64,000 nucleotides of DNA from Dehalobacterium sp. GTDB lineage: Bacteria; Bacillota; Dehalobacteriia; Dehalobacteriales; Dehalobacteriaceae. The notes under the pieces were generated by a model that was not told the origin of the DNA, did not search any database, and saw only the letters and a list, made by a program, of their open reading frames with translations. This document shows, in pieces, positions 51,461 through 60,786 of this stretch. The stretch covers positions 65,495 to 129,494 of the forward strand of contig JAXGQR010000009.1 of the NCBI GenBank assembly GCA_040766325.1, read 5' to 3'. Made by a program: the position numbers and the translations under genes. Position 1 is the first letter of the stretch, and every line of letters starts with the position of its first letter.

Positions 51461-53992
51461 TCAAACGGAAACACACTCATTGTTGGAACGCAATTTAAGT
51501 TTCTCCACTGCTTGCTCCCGCATTTTATATTTCATAATTTTCCCTGCCGCATTCATGGGAAATTCTGTAACAAATTCTACATAGCGAGGCGTTTTATGTT
51601 TGGCCAGATGAGATCGGATATATTCTTTAAGTTCATCGGCGGTAAGGTTTTCCCCTTCCTTGAGAATCACACAGGCCATAATCTCTTCACCATAATCTTT
51701 GTCCGGCACCCCGATTACTTGCACATCCCTCACCTGGGGATGAGTATAAATAAAATCCTCAATCTCTTTGGGATAGATATTCTCCCCACCCCGAATGATC
51801 ATATCCTTGATCCGTCCGGTAATTTTATAGTAACCATTCTCATCCCGGCGGGCAAGATCACCGGTATGCAGCCATCCGTCTTCATCGATGGCGGCTTTCG
51901 TAGCTTCAGGCATTTTGTAATAACCTTTCATGATATTGTAGCCGCGGGCGACAAATTCCCCATCCACATTATCCGGCAAATCCTCTCCCGTCTCAGGATC
52001 AACAATCTTGCACTCTACCCCGGGCAAAGCTCGCCCCACAGTGTTAACACGCAGTTCAATGGAATCATCCACCCGGCTTTGGGTACATCCCGGGGAAGAC
52101 TCCGTTTGACCAAAAACAATGGTGATCTCCTTCATATTCATCTTATCTACCACATCCTGCATCACCTTAACAGGACAAGGACTTCCGGCCATGATGCCTG
52201 TTCTCATATGGGAGAAATCGGTCTTGGCAAAATCCTCATGTCCCATCATCGCAATAAACATCGTGGGCACCCCATGACAGCTGGTAATTTTCTCTTTATT
52301 GATGCATTCCAGAGCTAGCTTGGGCGAAAAAGCCGGGATGGGACAAATGGTCGTCCCATGGGTCATAGCCGCAGTCATGGCCAAAACCATACCAAAGCAA
52401 TGGAACATGGGTACATGAAGCAGCAAACGGTCCGCTGTGGAAAGATCCATGCAATCACCAATCGTTTTACCGTTATTCACCACATTATAGTGGGTAAGCA
52501 TAACCCCTTTGGGAAAACCGGTTGTGCCGGAGGTATACTGCATGTTGCAAACATCATTTCTATGAATGGCCTGGGCATAACGGTGTACAGTATCCTGAGA
52601 TACATTTTCCGCGAGGGCAATGGCTTCATCCCAAGACAGACAGCCCTTTTGCTTGGACTCAATAGTGACAATATTGCGTAGGAAAGGCAGCCTTTTTAAA
52701 TGTAAGGGTTCTCCGGGCCGGGCATTTTCCAGCTCCGGACACAGTTCTTTGATGATTCCCACATAATCCGAATCCTTATGGCCATCGATCATAACCAAAG
52801 TATGGGTATCGGACTGGCGCAATAAATACTCCGCTTCATAAATCTTATAAGCCGTGTTGACGGTAACAAGAACTGCTCCGATTTTAGTGGTGGCCCAAAA
52901 GGTAATAAACCATTGAGGTACATTCGTGGCCCAAATGGCTACATGATCCCCCGGTCGCACCCCCATAGCAATTAAAGATCTGGCAAAGGTATCCACATCA
53001 TCCCTGAATTGAGCATAAGTTCTCGTATAATCCAAGGTGGTATAGCGAAATGCGTATTGATGGGGGAATTCTTCTACCATCCGATCCAAAACCTGCGGGA
53101 AGGTTAGATCAATCAAGGCGTCCTTCTGCCAAACATATTTCCCGGTTTTGGCATTGTTATCGAAGAGATGACTTTTTTTTATATCCTTTTCCCGAAAACG
53201 GTTCATATAGTTGGCAAAATTGGGGAAAACAACTCCGGCATCACTTAGCTCAGGGGCCCAACGTTTAACCCATTCCAAAGATACATAACCTTCATAATTA
53301 ATGGAACGTAGAGCTAAAAGCATGTCTTCGATAGGCATATCCCCCTCTCCCATCATACGATAGGAAATCTTGCCATTCTCCACTACAGAATCTTTGGTGT
53401 GTACGTATTTGATATAAGCACCTAGGTTCTGTACCGTTTTTTCCGGTTCTTCTCCGGCAAAGCGATAGGGATGATGCATATCCCAAAGCGCAGCCACCGC
53501 ATCGCTGGCTGCATCATCAAGTAGTTTGCACAAACGGGAGGTATCTGTATAGACACCGTTGGTTTCAACCAACAAAGTGACGCCTTTTTCTTCCGCAAAG
53601 GGGATCAGGGCCCGTAGAGCATCAAGGACAACCTGATCGTCCACTTCTCCGGTAACGTGAGGTTCCAGATCGGCAAGAATCCGAATATAAGGAGTGCCCA
53701 GCTTAGCCGCCAGTTCAATATATTGTAAAATCTCTTCATGGTTTTGTTGGGCCTTTTCTTTAAATCTTAAACAACATCCCGAAGAAATACAAGGAATCTC
53801 CAGTTGTAAATCGGCAAGTTTTTTTACCGTTTGCGGTATCTGATCATCTGTAAAGGGTTGAGCACGCACGGCAAAAATCTCGTTACCCAAGCCGCGAATT
53901 TCAATGCCGTTAAAACCAACGTCCTTAGCCATAGAATAAATATCTGTCCAACTAAAATCAGGACAACCCAGTGTTGAAAAAGCAATTTTCAT
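51461..53992 (-). CDS. fusion protein: N-terminal xylose-isomerase-like TIM barrel (sugar phosphate isomerase/epimerase family) plus C-terminal AMP-forming acyl-CoA synthetase
   Basis: Residues 1 to about 280 are an AP_endonuc_2-type TIM barrel (MKIAFSTLGCPDFSW...). Residues from about 290 to 843 are an adenylate-forming enzyme (YTSGTTGFPKGV, GYNIMKGYY, TGDLARRDENGYYKITGRIKD, GKIMKY). Confidence 0.8.
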   Translation of the reverse strand: MKIAFSTLGCPDFSWTDIYSMAKDVGFNGIEIRGLGNEIFAVRAQPFTDDQIPQTVKKLADLQLEIPCISSGCCLRFKEKAQQNHEEILQYIELAAKLGTPYIRILADLEPHVTGEVDDQVVLDALRALIPFAEEKGVTLLVETNGVYTDTSRLCKLLDDAASDAVAALWDMHHPYRFAGEEPEKTVQNLGAYIKYVHTKDSVVENGKISYRMMGEGDMPIEDMLLALRSINYEGYVSLEWVKRWAPELSDAGVVFPNFANYMNRFREKDIKKSHLFDNNAKTGKYVWQKDALIDLTFPQVLDRMVEEFPHQYAFRYTTLDYTRTYAQFRDDVDTFARSLIAMGVRPGDHVAIWATNVPQWFITFWATTKIGAVLVTVNTAYKIYEAEYLLRQSDTHTLVMIDGHKDSDYVGIIKELCPELENARPGEPLHLKRLPFLRNIVTIESKQKGCLSWDEAIALAENVSQDTVHRYAQAIHRNDVCNMQYTSGTTGFPKGVMLTHYNVVNNGKTIGDCMDLSTADRLLLHVPMFHCFGMVLAMTAAMTHGTTICPIPAFSPKLALECINKEKITSCHGVPTMFIAMMGHEDFAKTDFSHMRTGIMAGSPCPVKVMQDVVDKMNMKEITIVFGQTESSPGCTQSRVDDSIELRVNTVGRALPGVECKIVDPETGEDLPDNVDGEFVARGYNIMKGYYKMPEATKAAIDEDGWLHTGDLARRDENGYYKITGRIKDMIIRGGENIYPKEIEDFIYTHPQVRDVQVIGVPDKDYGEEIMACVILKEGENLTADELKEYIRSHLAKHKTPRYVEFVTEFPMNAAGKIMKYKMREQAVEKLKLRSNNECVSV

Positions 53993-54050: not shown

Positions 54051-54340
54051 AAAAAAAGCCTTCATCTCAAAACAACTTGTTTGAGACGAAAGCTTTAACT
54101 TCCGCGGTACCACTCTTTTTGGTATAAAAATACCCACTCTGAGGCATCAGTCAAAATAACGAATGCCCTCTCATGATAACGGTGAGAATCCCGTTCATAC
54201 CTACTTGCTTTCCGCCGAAAAGCAGAAAACTTTCAGCTGACTGCTCAAGGGCGAGTTCACTGATTGCTCCGGGCACTGTTTTTCAGCAAACAACAGCTCT
54301 CTGAAGCCACGTTCCGCATCGTGTTTTCCCTGTCATAGCA
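54051..54340 (-). promoter_or_regulatory. T-box leader, specifier CUC (Leu), with terminator/antiterminator
   Basis: On the minus strand the elements are: a K-turn UGCUAUGACAGGG paired to CCCUUGAGCA; an AGAGAG bulge; a GCUGAAAA distal loop; specifier loop GUGAA-CUC-G directly abutting the lower stem (CUC at 54253-54255); T-box GAGUGGUACCGCGG (54102-54116); terminator AGCUUUCGUCUCAAA-N7-UUUGAGAUGAAGGCU followed by U7. Confidence 0.85.
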
Positions 54341-54358
54341 TTTAACCGATTGGAACTT

Positions 54359-54520: not shown

Positions 54521-54591
54521 TATAAAACAAATTTCACAAATTCTTTTCTGGTAATCATCAATTCACTTCACAAAATCATATCAATCCTCAT

Positions 54592-54699
54592 TCGCTGAGT
54601 TCTTGAAAAAGAAACGGGGGAACCATCACTGGGGTGAATCCTCATTAAGAGGTAGGGCGACACTTTTAGCCCGAATCCGTCAGCTAACTTCGTAAGCGT
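54592..54699 (+). promoter_or_regulatory. c-di-AMP riboswitch (ydaO-yuaA class), copy 2
   Basis: ACGGGGGAACC, CUGGGGUGAAUC, GUAGGGCG and CCGAAUCCGUCAGCUAACUUCGUAAGCG, collinear with copy 1. Confidence 0.85.
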
Positions 54700-54750
54700 A
54701 GAAAGGGAGGAGTTAAAGGATAGTATTGCTATCTTTAGATTACCCTTTTT

Positions 54751-54785: not shown

Positions 54786-54886
54786 TTTCAATTGGTTTAT
54801 TATGGTGCTTATGTTTGGAAAAGGATTCAATTGATTTATTTTGATAAACTTTTTTATCAATAATTGTTATGAAGGAGGCGTTTCAT

Positions 54887-56221
54887 GTGTTAATCGAAAG
54901 TACAAAGCAACGTGAATTTAGTTTACGGGAAAAAAGGGAAATATCTTTGGAACGTGCAGCTGAACTTAAGCATAAGATTGATGATTATCTAGAAAAAAAA
55001 CCTCTCATTAAGACCGGTTTCGAAATGTCGGAAATCTTAGCTAGCAATAAAGAAAAAATTCTGGCTTACTTCAAGGCTACAGAAGAAGACTGGAATAATT
55101 GGCATTGGCAAATGTCCCATCGCATAACTGATGTGCATGTTTTGTCCCAAATCATGGGCATTGATAAAGAACGTCTATCGGGGATCGAACAAGTCGGCGA
55201 GCAGTATCGTTGGGCGATTTCTCCATATTATGTTTCCCTGATCAGACCATTTTCACTTGAGGATCCTATCATGCGCCAGTCAGTGCCCTCTGTTGAGGAA
55301 TTAGATGAATTAGGCGAAGATGACCCCATGGCTGAAGAGTTTACTTCACCGGCACCTTGTATTACCCGGCGTTATCCGGATCGCTTGATCATTAACGTCA
55401 CCAATCAGTGCGGCATGTATTGTCGTCATTGTCAAAGACGCCGCAATATCGGTGAGGTGGATAAAAACCAGACCAAGGCCAACCTGCAGGCAGCTTTGGA
55501 CTATATCAGAAAAAATCATGAAATTCGCGATGTATTAATCACCGGTGGTGACGCTTTGCTCTTAAGCGATAGCCAATTAGACTGGCTCCTTTCTGAGCTG
55601 GATCAGATGAGTCATGTGGAGATCAAACGCATCGGCACCCGCACCCCGGTAACATTGCCTCAGCGCATTACACCGGAACTATGCGCCGTGCTTAAGAAAT
55701 ATCCTCCAATCTATATCAATACCCAGTTTAACCATCCCCGAGAAATCACTCCGGAAAGTAAGCGTGCCTGTGATCTGCTGGTAGAAGCAGGCGTGATATT
55801 AGGAAACCAGGCAGTTCTTCTGAAAGGCATTAACAATGATCCTCATATTATGAAAAAAATGAATCAAGAATTGTTAAAAATCAGAGTGCGACCCTATTAT
55901 ATCTTTCATGCCAAAGCCGTAAAAGGCACAAAACATTTTATTACTACGGTAGATGAAGGGTTGGAAATTATCAAAAAATTACGGGGATTCACTTCCGGCC
56001 TGGCAGTGCCCACTTATATTATTAATAGCCCTTATGGTTACGGAAAAATACCCCTCTTACCCACCTATGTCCAGAAATACAACGGATATCGGGTTCGTCT
56101 GCGCAATTGGGAAAACCGAGAAAATGAATACCCCTTCTTCCCGAAGCAGAATACAAACACAGAATTAAACCGCCGCAACATGATCATGTTAGCGTTTTTA
56201 AAAATCATGATAAAAATATAA
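54887..56221 (+). CDS. eam: glutamate 2,3-aminomutase (KamA-family radical SAM/PLP enzyme)
   Basis: CxxxCxxC site CRHCQRRR. Collinear blocks ISLERAAELKHKIDDY, EEDWNNWHWQ, CITRRYPDRLIINVTN. Lys and Asn replace the two lysine-binding Asp residues of lysine 2,3-aminomutase (YIFHAKAVKGTKHF and YIINSPYGYGK). The GTG at 54887 sits 8 nt after AAGGAGG; the ORF-track ATG at 54869 contains the SD itself. Confidence 0.8.
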   Translation: MLIESTKQREFSLREKREISLERAAELKHKIDDYLEKKPLIKTGFEMSEILASNKEKILAYFKATEEDWNNWHWQMSHRITDVHVLSQIMGIDKERLSGIEQVGEQYRWAISPYYVSLIRPFSLEDPIMRQSVPSVEELDELGEDDPMAEEFTSPAPCITRRYPDRLIINVTNQCGMYCRHCQRRRNIGEVDKNQTKANLQAALDYIRKNHEIRDVLITGGDALLLSDSQLDWLLSELDQMSHVEIKRIGTRTPVTLPQRITPELCAVLKKYPPIYINTQFNHPREITPESKRACDLLVEAGVILGNQAVLLKGINNDPHIMKKMNQELLKIRVRPYYIFHAKAVKGTKHFITTVDEGLEIIKKLRGFTSGLAVPTYIINSPYGYGKIPLLPTYVQKYNGYRVRLRNWENRENEYPFFPKQNTNTELNRRNMIMLAFLKIMIKI

Positions 56222-56393: not shown

Positions 56394-57365
56394 CTATTTT
56401 AAGGCAAAGGACCGGGACAAAACATCCGTTCTTACCTCTCCCGAATGGAAGGAATTCCCGCTGTTTAAGTTACATAACCACACCTCAGCGGGATTAAACT
56501 GTTCCGGACTTAAATTAAAGAAATTATTATGGCTTTTTTTAATTTCCTCATAGGTGCGTCCATATTCGGGAGCGACACAGGAGGGAACTTGTTTTACCAC
56601 TTGAGCCAAGGTTTCATCCTCATCATACACATGATAAAGAACCGTTGAACCATAGGAAATGGCGTCATTGGTACGACCCAACCCGCTCAGGGTATTGGAG
56701 GCAACAGGTGAAACGGGACAAGTAGCACCCCCGGATATAACTTTTCCTAGATCATAACCTATTCTGCGCAGTTTAAATAATCCCGTCTCCAAGGCGCGGG
56801 CAGCCACCTGCACCGTACCTACAAGAGAGGTCGTGGGCGCGACCAAAACATAAAGATTCTTCATTTCACAGCGGCAAGCTTCCGCAATCTCTAGGAGGAC
56901 ATCCACCTGAGGAAGCCGATTGCTCTCCAGACATAGGATCGCAATCTCCGAATGATCCCGGTAACCCAGCATTTTAAAAAGACTGCCCCGATGAACGATA
57001 GCACAAGCCGGTCCGGAACCCATGAATAAATATTTGCCACTTTTAATGGGCCACCCGGCATACTGTGAAGCCATACAGGCGCGAACGGGATGATCTGTAA
57101 AAACCTCCACCTGGGGGAATTTTAACCCCCCAAAATCTCCCCAACTCAATTGGACCTGAGCCAGCCCGCCTAAGCAGACTTTAGAAAATATTATTCCTGC
57201 CTCCATACCTCCCGGAACATGAACACCGCAATCGATCACCGTGGCCTCGTTAAGACGATCCACTTTAACATTTAATTGTTCGCTGCGCGCCAAAAATTCC
57301 TGAATCAAGGAGAAAGCTTGGCGATTGGGACTTAGCTCAGGTATCTGGCTTAAGGGTAAAATCAT
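56394..57365 (-). CDS. mch: methenyltetrahydromethanopterin cyclohydrolase (Mch) homologue
   Basis: 323 aa, appears collinear with archaeal/methylotroph Mch as recalled. Blocks: ATVIDCGV..GG.EAG, FTDHP, SQYAGW, GSGPA, LYVLVAPTTSLVGTVQVAAR, GRTNDAISYG, FNPAEV. Confidence 0.75.
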   Translation of the reverse strand: MILPLSQIPELSPNRQAFSLIQEFLARSEQLNVKVDRLNEATVIDCGVHVPGGMEAGIIFSKVCLGGLAQVQLSWGDFGGLKFPQVEVFTDHPVRACMASQYAGWPIKSGKYLFMGSGPACAIVHRGSLFKMLGYRDHSEIAILCLESNRLPQVDVLLEIAEACRCEMKNLYVLVAPTTSLVGTVQVAARALETGLFKLRRIGYDLGKVISGGATCPVSPVASNTLSGLGRTNDAISYGSTVLYHVYDEDETLAQVVKQVPSCVAPEYGRTYEEIKKSHNNFFNLSPEQFNPAEVWLCNLNSGNSFHSGEVRTDVLSRSFALK

Positions 57366-57393
57366 ATTCTCCCTCTTTTCTTACCGAACTTTT

Positions 57394-59034
57394 TTATAAA
57401 CATGTTTCAATTCTTTTCCTTACTTTCTCTTCGCCCATAATCTGCTGCAGTGCCCAGATATCCGGGGAAGAGCTACGTCCGACAAGAGCGATACGAATTA
57501 CGGTACTGACATCCCCCACATGACCCTTGTACTGATCCGGGTTTTTCTTATAGTCCTTAGGTTTTGCCGCATAACCATTTTCGGTAGCAATAACTCTGAT
57601 TTTGTCAAACCATTGACTTTGATCATCACGATGATCATAAGTTGCCAAATACCCTTGTAAAATCTTTTTTACTTCCGTCTCATCGATGTTTTCGGGATAG
57701 GGATCAACAATCTGAAAATATTCATCAAAGTAGTAGCTGATAAAGTCAAATATTTGTGCGCAATAAATCAAATCCTTCCGGGGTTGTCTCGGATCATCCC
57801 GACCTACATCTAACAGTTTTTCCACCGCCGGCTGGTGCTCCAGAAGTAAATCAACAATGTGCCGGCGATAAGACTTGGCCCATTTTATTAAGAAATCAAA
57901 GATTTCCGGGGCAGGAATATTGGCCAGGGTATTTTTGCTAATATCATTCAGCTTATCTAAATCAAATAAAGCGCCGGAATTACTCATCTTCTCAAGAGTG
58001 AATTCAAACTCATCAATATTACTATCCGGGTTTGCGATTCTCCATTCTTCAAAATTAGAATTTAAAATCGTCATCAGATATTCACGCACTGCCACCGGAT
58101 GGTAACCTAATTCCATATAATACTTGCCTAATTCCGGATCTTTTTCTTTTGGACAATTTTCTTCTCGTGCCATTGTCGATTTTCATCAAATGTGCGGTAT
58201 GCGTAATATCGGCAATTCCCAATCCAAAGCCGTAAACAACTCATAATGAATGGGTAAAGTAGAAAGCCATTCTTCGCCTCTTACCACATGGGTCACACGC
58301 ATAAAGTGATCATCTACCACATGGGCGAAGTGGTAGGTGGGGATGCCATTGCCTTTTAAAATCACCACATCCTGATCATTAACCGGCATGGAAAGATATC
58401 CTCTGATACCATCAGCAATTTCAAAGGTTTGTTCCGGATTGCCCAGGGATTTTAAGCGTAAAACAAAGCGTTCCTCTTTCCCTATTCGCTCCATGATCTC
58501 GTCCAGGGATAAATTTCGGTCCCGGGCCCATTTACCATAATATCCGGTGTTAACATTTTCCGCCATCTGTTGTTTGCGAATTTCTTCTAATTCCTCTTCC
58601 GAACAAAAGCAGGGATAAGCTCTGCCTATCTCTACCAAGTATTTTGCTACCGTCTGATAAATTTCTGCTCTGTTACTTTGAAAATAAGGTCCGTAGTTTC
58701 CTTTCTCTCCATCCATCCCCGCTCCCTCATCAAACTTTAAGTCAAAGAATTCCAAAGAAGAAATGATGGTTTCTACGGCACCTTCTACCTTACGTTTTTC
58801 ATCTGTATCTTCGATGCGCAAGAAAAAGATCCCATTACTTTGGTGAGCCAAACGTTCATCAACAAACGCACCGTAAAGATTCCCCAAGTGAATAAAGCCG
58901 GTAGGGCTTGGTGCTAATCGGGTGACTTTGGCACCTACACCTAAGTCTCTCTGGGGATATACGGTTTCTTCATAATAAGCGATTGATTTTGTGATCTTGG
59001 GGAATAGCACATCAGCTAATTTTTTATTGTCCAT
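57394..59034 (-). pseudogene. gltX: glutamate--tRNA ligase (clostridial long form) interrupted by a single-base frameshift
   Basis: N-terminal ORF 58186-59034 (PSPTGFIHLGN HIGH region) ends ...DWELPILRIPHI*. In the frame 1 nt downstream the text continues ITHTAHLMKIDNGTRRKLSKRKDPELGKYYMELGY, carrying the KMSKS-type motif, and runs into ORF 57394-58173. The shift lies at about 58203-58212. Confidence 0.75.
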
Positions 59035-59361
59035 GATAAATTTTCCTCATTTACATTAAAATTATTTCTAAGCCTGGGTCAAGCCGGAAAACGAAAGACG
59101 CTTCTCTTGTCCAATTAACAAAGAACCGTCTTTAGAAGAAGCACCTTTTCCTTTGACCTTTTGGCCAAACATACCAATATAAATTATACACCAAAGCAAT
59201 TAATTTATCCACAAATTTTAAGAAACAATCAGGTTTAATGATTAACAAAACCCTCTAAATCAAGGCATGTTCTCGATTATTAATTGACTAAATATTTTAT
59301 ATCGTGTTAGAATAAATACCGTATATTCTATTACAAAATTTGCAAAATATTGGGGGCTATT

Positions 59362-60786
59362 ATGTTTACTTCCGTGAAACATGTTCAGGATTATTGCCGG
59401 GAAAACGGGATCCGAATGATTGATTTTAAAATGATTGACATTGATGGCCGCTGGCGACATATTACCATCCCTGCTGAGCGCATGAACGAAGACACTATGA
59501 AATACGGCGTTGGCTTTGATGGTTCTAATTACGGCTACACGCCTGTTGAAAAGAGCGACATGGCATTTATTCCTGATCTCTCCAGCGCTCACATCGATCC
59601 CTTTGTAAATGAACCCACCCTCTCCATGAGCGGTGATGTTTGGGTGATTGATGAAGTTGATTATAAACCATTTAACCATTATCCCTGCATGTCATGCCTT
59701 CAGGGCTGAGGAATTTATATGAAAATAATATCGCTGATGAGATGATCATCGGTCCGAATTTACTCGCCACTTTAGATCATGTAAGCTATGAATGCTTCCA
59801 ATCGTTTCCTATGATTGACACCATCCAAGCCGAGTGGAACAGTAGCGTTTAAATAATATTAAAATTTAGGTTACTATAAAGCCACAAGGGCGGTTATCAT
59901 ATTACTGCGCCTATGATATTTCCATGATCTATGTAGCAAGATGTGCCTTTCTTTGAAGATTGGGGTGTTAAGGTTAAGTATCATCATCATGAGGTAGGCG
60001 GCCCCGGTCAGCTGAGATTGAAGTTGAATTAGAACTACATCGAGATGGCCGATGCTGCTATCAAGGATCATCAAATATACGATCAAAAATGCCGCCATCA
60101 CAGCTAATAAAACGGCGTGACTTTTTTGCCGAAGCCCCATCTACGGCGAGGCAGGAACGGCATGTACGCATATGCTCCTGATGAAAGACGGAAAACCGCT
60201 ATTCTATAATGAAAAAACGGTTATTCCGGACTAAGCAGAGAAGCGCACTGGCTCTTGGGCGGCTTTTTAAAGCATGCCAAATCTCTTTGCGGTTTAACTA
60301 ATCCTTCTACTAATTCTTTTAAACGCGTCTTGTCCCTGGTTTTGAAGTACCGGTGACTATTGGTTATGGTGACTTCCAACAGAAGTGCGGTAATCCGTAT
60401 CCCGGCATATGCGAAATCACTTCCAAGTCAAAGCGCTTTGAGCTGAGAAACCCTGATGCAAATTTGCACCTTTATTACGCCTATGCCGCTATTCTGATGG
60501 CAGGGATTGACGGGATTATAACAAAATCAATCCCCAGGAAAACGGCTGGGGTCCCTACACTTTTAATCTATTTAATCTTTCCGAAGAAGAGAAAATAAGT
60601 TGATGCGCGTTCTGAACACTTGATGGTGCTCCTGAACGCATTAGAGGCAGATCAGGAATACCTTACCCGGGGAGGGGTCTTTCCAGTGGAACTTCTTGAT
60701 CGGTGGATTGCCAAACAAACGAAAAGAGGCAGATGCCATTAACAAAATTCCTCATCCGGCAGAGGTTGCCTATTATGATCTTTAAC
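59362..60786 (+). pseudogene. glnA: glutamine synthetase, heavily decayed
   Basis: The N-terminus is intact (MFTSVKHVQDYCRENGIRMIDFKMIDIDGRWRHITIP). Later GS blocks are scattered over all three frames with internal stops: KYHHHEVGGPGQ near 59966-60001, NRSAVIRIPAYA at 60378-60413, RFELRNPDAN..YYAYAAILMAGIDGI, and LLDRWIAK...INKIPHPAEV. Confidence 0.8.

Follow-up and report, generated by a model that had tools for sequence, protein, structure and literature searches.

The DNA analysed here, referred to as the window, is a stretch of 64,000 nucleotides from Dehalobacterium sp. (GenBank assembly GCA_040766325.1, contig JAXGQR010000009.1, forward-strand positions 65,495 to 129,494), and the gene under study lies at 56394..57365 on its minus strand. 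The gene begins with ATG and encodes a 323-aa, 35-kDa protein of the methenyl-tetrahydromethanopterin cyclohydrolase (Mch) family, which is described below as a stand-alone cyclohydrolase paralog of a group named clade A. It follows gltX on the same strand, and the distance of 28 nt given in an earlier description of this DNA, the initial annotation, is exact, with the gltX stop codon TAA at 57394-57396 and the mch ATG at 57363-57365. By every structural test the product belongs to a known family, but it fails the pathway-context test that stands behind the family name.

The sequence blocks by which the family had been recognized, ATVIDCGV, TDHP, SQYAGW, GSGPA, LVAPTTSLVGTVQVAAR, GRTNDAISYG and FNPAEV, are all present in the translation. 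The Pfam profile MCH (PF02289) matches the protein with 365.2 bits (cut-off 25, E 3.7e-109), residues 14-320 corresponding to positions 3-311 of the 311 in the profile, and the NCBIfam equivalog model TIGR03120 matches with 340.9 bits against a cut-off of 228.8, so that full-length family models are matched above their curated cut-offs. End-to-end collinearity with Mch, as proposed in the initial annotation, is borne out by PDB sequence matches to 1qlm (E 2.3e-82) and 4gvq (E 8.4e-76), to which the protein is 39-44% identical. Moreover, an AlphaFold2 (AF2) model (pLDDT 90.2, pTM 0.90) shows the two-domain alpha/beta Mch fold and was matched by Foldseek to 1qlm (TM 0.92, rmsd 1.6 Å) and 4gvq (TM 0.90), the best non-Mch match having an E of 0.07. 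MCH is the sole Pfam family found in the protein at E <= 0.01, and the protein is a member neither of PF00763/PF02882 (FolD) nor of PF04961 (FchA); any activity on tetrahydrofolate (H4F) would mean that it works like FolD/FchA, not that it belongs to their families. The 323-aa product is a true, full-length Mch homologue.

No further gene of the tetrahydromethanopterin (H4MPT) pathway is present in the window, as a Pfam scan of 48 open reading frames (ORFs) plus four more confirmed, and the term orphan, used of this gene in the initial annotation, holds genome-wide by profile searches and tblastn. The host genome (2.91 Mb, 35 contigs, 99.37% complete) has one copy of Mch; the profiles of FTR, Fae, MTD and Mer have no match in it, and its best match to ribofuranosylaminobenzene 5'-phosphate (RFAP) synthase scores 18.9 bits against a cut-off of 113.5. 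Among the 14 proteins of a Gracilibacter cluster of fhc, mch and other H4MPT-methanofuran genes, which were compared with the host genome by tblastn, Mch alone has a real counterpart (51% identity); two other matches were a HisA-like protein (24% identity) and an 89-aa fragment of FhcA, and there was no real counterpart of MptN or MfnB. The Mpt_N (MtdA/B) profile also had no match, but its control matched nowhere either, so this search carries no weight. Co-occurrence of the gene with the H4MPT pathway, taken as Ftr/Fhc, Fae, Mtd/Mer, RFAP synthase and MptN, was thus not found in its own genome.

The folate branch of the same genome is complete. FolD (120.8 bits) and FchA (216.3 bits) are encoded side by side on contig C33, and 5-formyl-tetrahydrofolate cyclo-ligase (157.1 bits), formyltetrahydrofolate synthetase (FTHFS) and acetyl-CoA synthase are present as well. 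A role for Mch as a gap-filler for a missing folate enzyme is ruled out, FolD, FchA and the cyclo-ligase all being encoded. A second FchA-like frame (FTCD_C, 163 bits; G000:C33:44962-45474), with one TGA, one TAG and one TAA, is probably a pseudogene or an error-rich stretch.

A homologue search returned 8000 candidates, 7174 of them at E <= 0.001, and the best 120 of these 7174 are nearly all Firmicute or without a name; Desulfosporosinus spp., Sporobacter termitidis, Papillibacter, Dehalobacter sp. DCM and Moorella are among those named. Dehalobacterium formicoaceticum has an orthologue at 85% identity, which NCBI names 'methenyltetrahydromethanopterin cyclohydrolase', while Candidatus (Ca.) Formimonas warabiya has one copy at 79% identity and a second at 54%. 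Within the GTDB order of the host, Mch was found in three of eight genomes, namely its own, the same-genus genome G003 and a 6.44-Mb genome with two copies. In an IQ-TREE phylogeny of 95 sequences (quick run, LG+C20), all 28 Bacillota rows fall on one side of a branch with an approximate likelihood ratio (SH-aLRT) support of 100, and 19 of the 28, the window's protein included, form the group here defined as clade A (SH-aLRT 99). In larger FastTree sets, clade A comprised 101 and then 107 sequences (support 0.992-0.997), and the node uniting all Bacillota was weak (0.17-0.35). The phylogeny places the window's protein in a Bacillota-only clade, the nearest relatives of which are pathway-linked Firmicute copies at 50-55% identity, not archaeal or proteobacterial ones. 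Judged from sequence, clade A appears to share an ancestor with the Mch of the Firmicute fhc clusters and to be independent of the pathway now; the trees are unrooted, and it is the outgroups that point to a pathway-linked ancestor.

Clade A occurs, among others, in Dehalobacterium and Ca. Formimonas, both of which ferment dichloromethane, in many Desulfosporosinus, and in Oscillospiraceae of the Sporobacter/Papillibacter type. One Desulfosporosinus metagenome-assembled genome (MAG; G009) has two clade-A copies (L007 and L010), 68% and 63% identical to that of the window, and lacks FTR and RFAP synthase, so the orphan paralog itself has been duplicated or acquired twice.

The premise that H4MPT genes are absent from Firmicutes is outdated. 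Clusters of the type fhcBADC-mch-mptN-mfnB were found in three Firmicutes, and Firmicutes are already listed among the carriers of H4MPT genes in Chistoserdova 2016 (PMC5020050). The loci L016, L017 and L018, whose Mch is about 50% identical to the window's, lie inside such fhc/H4MPT clusters, and complete collinear versions were found in Gracilibacter sp. BRH_c7a (L017, 3720-16593), in Desulfosporosinus lacus (L018, 3745-15739), the genome of which has two FTR and two pathway-type Mch loci, and around copy 2 of Ca. Formimonas warabiya (L087, 3238-16932), where 14 of 14 proteins are collinear at 49-79% identity. The gene order is ATP-grasp, FhcB-like, two unknowns, FhcA, FhcD (FTR), FhcC, Mch, MptN-like RimK, CitG-like, MfnB, ATP-grasp, hydantoinase-A-like and HisA-like. 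This 14-gene cluster is the Firmicute version of the bacterial H4MPT/methanofuran formaldehyde-oxidation module.

The surroundings of Mch genes were surveyed by Pfam on 98 neighbouring ORFs at 13 Bacillota loci, the neighbours in G003 and G004 being compared by BLAST. The 12 clade-A loci examined have no conserved partner gene in common; a gene of the KamA family is found within 5 kb at three of the 12, all in one GTDB family, and a convergent alanyl-tRNA synthetase gene lies downstream at three, all of the Oscillospiraceae type. Neither FTR nor RFAP synthase was found in eight of the 12 clade-A genomes (G000, G003, G009, G010, G011, G014, G015 and G016), several of which are MAGs, where absence is provisional. 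The other four (G008, G012, G013 and G019) have FTR plus a separate non-A Mch, which adjoins FTR in G008 and G012. Standing alone in eight genomes and beside a non-A Mch in four, clade A is therefore a paralog with a presence independent of the pathway. Among the eight orphan-only hosts, FTHFS is present in seven and acetyl-CoA synthase in seven.

It is doubtful that clade-A proteins are still cyclohydrolases of methenyl-H4MPT (or dephospho-H4MPT), with the cofactor obtained from methanogenic or methylotrophic neighbours or by an unrecognised route. Four clade-A hosts do possess the full pathway, and the score of the window's protein is above the TIGR03120 equivalog cut-off, both of which speak for H4MPT. 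A lone cyclohydrolase, however, would be left with neither source nor sink for formyl- and methenyl-H4MPT, and the pathway-bearing genomes have a separate non-A Mch in the fhc cluster, beside which the clade-A protein is a second, differently constrained copy.

The residues bear on the same question. In the alignment with 4gvq, Arg190 and Glu193 correspond to the catalytic Arg183 and Glu186 of Archaeoglobus fulgidus, and Gln101-Tyr102-Ala103 to its active-site segment 93-95. The catalytic residues are conserved throughout clade A, with Arg190, Glu193 and Gln101 each present in 107 of 107 sequences and Ala103 in 106 of 107; residue 102 is Tyr in the window's protein and in 67/67 non-Bacillota relatives sampled, and Lys in A. 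fulgidus. For a wider comparison, 124 other Mch were used (37 sequences from Bacillota outside clade A, 67 from further phyla and 20 from archaea), of which the fhc-linked Bacillota alone have verified pathway linkage, the rest being labelled by phylum or tree position, and of which one archaeal row, G139, groups with archaea lacking FTR. Among 48 positions conserved at 95% or more in this set, 43 retain their residue in at least 80% of clade-A sequences. The motif set D45, SQYAGW, GSGP, E147, R190, E193 and TND-x3-Y is strictly conserved. The retention of these 43 positions and of all catalytic residues also fits H4MPT as the substrate. Five positions are relaxed in clade A, namely R121 (56% kept), G214 (79%), S265 (62%), F272 (54%) and D286 (65%), and the window's protein has C121, A214, A265, Y272 and S286. 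Three of them are nearly invariant among the 124 other Mch, with R121 found in 123, S265 in 122 and D286 in 123; their loss in 35-44% of clade A, and of all three in the window's protein, argues against an unchanged use of H4MPT.

In addition, clade A has fixed changes of its own, which lie near the catalytic residues as judged by sequence neighbourhood and helix periodicity. Between the catalytic Arg and Glu, Ala191 is present in 102 of 107 sequences and Leu192 in 100, where pathway-linked Bacillota have Ser/Ala-Val. Position 197, one helix turn past Glu193 in helix 191-201 of the AF2 model, is Ser or Phe in 104/107 clade-A sequences and His in 36/37 other Bacillota and 67/67 sequences from other phyla. 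Pro106, just past the active-site segment, is found in 101/107, and Gly127 in all 107, the latter position being Glu in 37/37 pathway-linked Bacillota.

The gene is under purifying selection comparable to that of neighbouring housekeeping genes. The ratio of nonsynonymous to synonymous substitution (dN/dS, by Nei-Gojobori) for mch is 0.073 between the window and G003, 0.076 between the window and Formimonas and 0.103 between G003 and Formimonas, dS being near saturation in the Formimonas pairs, and the values for three neighbouring genes are 0.055-0.090. As to expression, metatranscriptome contigs from two runs of two studies match stretches of 165 and 231 nt in mch at 100% identity, which is weak evidence given that DNA carry-over is possible; the contigs leave the gltX break described below uncovered. 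Mch is not listed in the EZ94 proteome tables described below, which speaks against its expression under one growth condition at least, and the searched part of the metaproteome supplement for Ca. Formimonas has no match to 'methanopterin'.

The initial annotation had offered a horizontally acquired relic as one of two options, which does not agree with a dN/dS of 0.07-0.10, like that of the neighbours, nor with the gene's membership in a conserved Bacillota clade from which 107 sequences were sampled. It is hardly credible that the gene is decaying after the loss of an H4MPT pathway, or that it is contamination or a piece of archaeal DNA. Broken genes in the same stretch (gltX and glutamine synthetase) might suggest such decay, but the mch frame is intact and constrained in all three comparisons, the flanks are typical of Firmicutes, and the order gltX-mch-eam-AMP-ligase is the same in the complete same-genus genome. 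Contamination or archaeal origin is ruled out by this synteny and by the position in the tree.

The gltX gene (57394..59034, minus strand) encodes a glutamyl-tRNA synthetase (GluRS) and is separated from mch by the spacer 57366..57393 on the minus strand, in which a Shine-Dalgarno-like sequence, AGAGGGAGA, lies at 57368-57376 just 5' of the ATG; a terminator scan between the two genes found no terminator-like site. As a correction to the initial annotation, gltX is not a single frame in this assembly but is split into ORFs of 282 and 259 aa. The break around 58141-58212 consists of two compensating 1-nt frame shifts with about 70 nt out of frame and two in-frame TGA codons, and the segment KLSKRK (KMSKS-type) is out of frame within it. 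The orthologue in G003 is intact (551 aa, 81% identity by alignment). Read through the two TGA codons, gltX matches TIGR00464 with 270.6 bits, the next best match in the genome having 85.9 bits, and it is the genome's only GluRS-like gene scoring near the family cut-off. Because no other locus of the genome comes near gltX as a match to GluRS, the frame break is likely an assembly error rather than a sign of a dead gene.

A sigma-70-like promoter match on the minus strand at 59183..59211 (TGGATA-17-TATAAT, 10/12), about 150 nt 5' of gltX, is a candidate start of a gltX-mch transcript; it is a weak consensus match alone, the region having 11 promoter-like sites against 8.5 expected from shuffles. 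The two genes are probably co-transcribed in this genus. The suspicion that the linkage to gltX might be accidental was justified, as it is kept in the same-genus genome only, that is, at two of the 12 clade-A loci (the window and G003), and it is genus-specific and probably incidental.

The remainder of the window is ordinary Firmicute DNA, with genes for fatty-acid synthesis, SMC, FtsY/Ffh, RACo and catalase. On the 3' side of mch and convergent with it lies a glutamate 2,3-aminomutase gene (eam; 54869-56221, plus strand; TIGR04368, 693.9 bits). A c-di-AMP (ydaO-type) riboswitch (54583-54714, plus strand, 110 bits) lies directly 5' of this gene and suggests that c-di-AMP controls the synthesis of beta-glutamate, as would be in keeping with the regulation of an osmolyte. 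A T-box leader (54079-54345, minus strand, 101.5 bits) precedes 51461-53992 (minus strand), which encodes an unusual protein of 843 aa in which a xylose-isomerase-like TIM barrel (AP_endonuc_2) is fused to an AMP-binding enzyme of the acyl/aminoacyl-adenylate-forming type; this fusion is conserved in the same-genus genome at 89% identity. As well, glutamine synthetase is present only in fragments at 59350-60598 (plus strand), where one ORF of 119 aa carries Gln-synt_N and another of 81 aa carries part of Gln-synt_C; together with gltX, it makes two broken genes in close proximity.

The clade-A protein would thus be a functional stand-alone hydrolase of the Mch family that is no longer part of the H4MPT pathway, and the reading tentatively preferred is that of a cyclohydrolase which has been adapted to methenyl-tetrahydrofolate or to a pterin much like it, at a probability that stays short of an even chance. 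Recruitment to another pterin, the second option of the initial annotation, stands as the better of the two, the particular substrate being one that we infer. Archaeal Mch reportedly uses Glu as a base and Arg to polarise water. By analogy, Glu193 would act as the general base and Arg190 would polarise a water molecule, which would attack the methenyl (imidazolinium) carbon that links N5 to N10 in the reduced pterin, so that the bridge would be opened reversibly to yield a formyl-pterin. The substrate would not be H4MPT, because the genome cannot make or otherwise use it; methenyl-H4F or a similar pterin would be a high-flux intermediate in these Wood-Ljungdahl bacteria, and it is favoured because it is the only such metabolite that the hosts are known to make in quantity, given their FTHFS and acetyl-CoA synthase. 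Co-transcription with the housekeeping gene gltX would give constitutive expression, with no functional link to glutamate.

Several observations weigh against a folate substrate. There is no gap in the pathway that needs Mch, as FolD, FchA and the cyclo-ligase are encoded, and at the 12 clade-A loci examined no gene of folate or C1 metabolism recurs as a neighbour. The 43 retained positions are equally compatible with an unchanged substrate, and Phe at position 197 is shared by the A. fulgidus enzyme, which uses H4MPT. The Mch and FchA enzymes characterised from Methylorubrum are reportedly specific for their cofactors. The EZ94 proteome tables of D. formicoaceticum grown on dichloromethane, as searched in the supplement of PMC10344839, list no Mch, which means only that it is not listed under growth on dichloromethane, while FolD ranks 12, an FchA-type protein 26 and MtrH/MecF 89 there. 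Moreover, a test of convergent relaxation between clade A and 18 archaeal Mch from genomes without FTR, described below, was not significant (table [[2,3],[9,34]], Fisher p = 0.32), so the haloarchaeal parallel is an analogy, not evidence.

Part of the same evidence fits another explanation, in which the fold of Mch has come to serve a substrate that is not a C1 carrier, such as another cyclic amidine or formamide of cofactor or secondary metabolism, or a binding role without catalysis; this seems unlikely, albeit deserving of serious consideration. It would account for the intact folate metabolism, for the lack of a conserved genomic partner at the loci examined, for the clade-specific fixed changes beside the catalytic residues, and for Mch not being seen in the available tables of a proteome in which C1-folate enzymes are abundant. 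The strict conservation of the catalytic and pterin-type motif set nevertheless argues for a methenyl-pterin-like substrate, and no neighbour suggests an alternative one.

Canonical Mch gives an N5-formyl product, and FolD/FchA give N10-formyl. A more specific proposal, in which clade A applies the regiochemistry of Mch to folate and interconverts 5,10-methenyl-H4F and N5-formyl-H4F without ATP, is quite improbable as it stands; if true, Wood-Ljungdahl Firmicutes would possess a third methenyl-H4F cyclohydrolase, not homologous to the other two, along with a way to enter or leave the 5-formyl-H4F pool that needs no ATP.

All listed clade-A proteins are named 'methenyltetrahydromethanopterin cyclohydrolase' in the databases, and metagenome surveys will consequently score these Firmicutes as carrying a marker of methanogenesis or methylotrophy. 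The present results bear on this 'methanogenesis marker' annotation in Firmicute MAGs and on a possible enzyme redundancy in the Wood-Ljungdahl pathway. If clade A is active on methenyl-H4F, the acetyl-CoA pathway would have a third cyclohydrolase family, unrelated to the other two, and the haloarchaeal Mch question would have a counterpart in bacteria; if clade A lacks this activity, it would represent new chemistry on a well-understood scaffold. Full-text literature searches, with bioRxiv supplements outside their scope, found no discussion of a stand-alone Bacillota Mch clade. The main texts of PMC10327494, PMC9768040 and PMC6778437 make no mention of stand-alone Mch, and the preprint 10.1101/2025.07.15.664484 refers to Mch only in figure legends, for methanogens.

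Compared with known systems, the window's protein resembles canonical Mch (EC 3.5.4.27; Methanopyrus kandleri 1QLM, A. fulgidus 4GVQ/4GVR), with which it is collinear and shares the catalytic Arg/Glu and Gln-x-Ala; canonical Mch, however, is part of the H4MPT pathway, whereas the host of the window has none of the H4MPT pathway and biosynthesis genes searched for. The pathway-linked Mch of Bacillota are the nearest non-A relatives and form one Bacillota group with clade A in the IQ-TREE tree. They are embedded in the 14-gene module, while clade A is monocistronic or found in varying contexts, and they have E127, F106, S-V at 191-192 and H197, where clade A has G127, P106, A191-L192 and S/F197.

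A further comparison is offered by the haloarchaea. The Mch of Haloferax volcanii, HVO_2573, was argued to 'probably function with tetrahydrofolate' by Pfeiffer and Dyall-Smith (PMC8305020), and by analogy it resembles clade A in being kept in organisms without Ftr and being proposed as a methenyl-tetrahydrofolate cyclohydrolase. In a sample of 151 archaeal genomes from the phylum of a Methanolobus genome, 150 of which have Mch, 18 low-scoring Mch (L102-L119; G028...G169) come from genomes of high GC content (63-73%) with acidic sequences (D+E 17-20%), and FTR is present in none of the 18. Together with G139, a row labelled methanogen-type, they group within archaeal Mch (methanogen sequences) with support of 1.0 and 0.99, and this nested position indicates an origin independent of clade A. 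The 18 proteins keep 0% of C64, C97, A176, Q186, T194, K198 and P261, while R190 and E193 stay. In contrast to clade A, they keep R121 (18/18) and F276 (16/18), and only S265 and D286 are relaxed in common.

FolD and FchA, the known cyclohydrolases of methenyl-H4F, catalyse the type of reaction that is proposed for clade A, but belong to unrelated folds and families. A precedent within the same genus is MecF, an MtrH/MtrA-type protein of the mec cassette of Dehalobacterium, which differs in family and in reaction and is a member of a methanogen-type family annotated for tetrahydrofolate; one pipeline names it 'Methylcorrinoid:tetrahydrofolate methyltransferase' in the supplement of PMC10344839.

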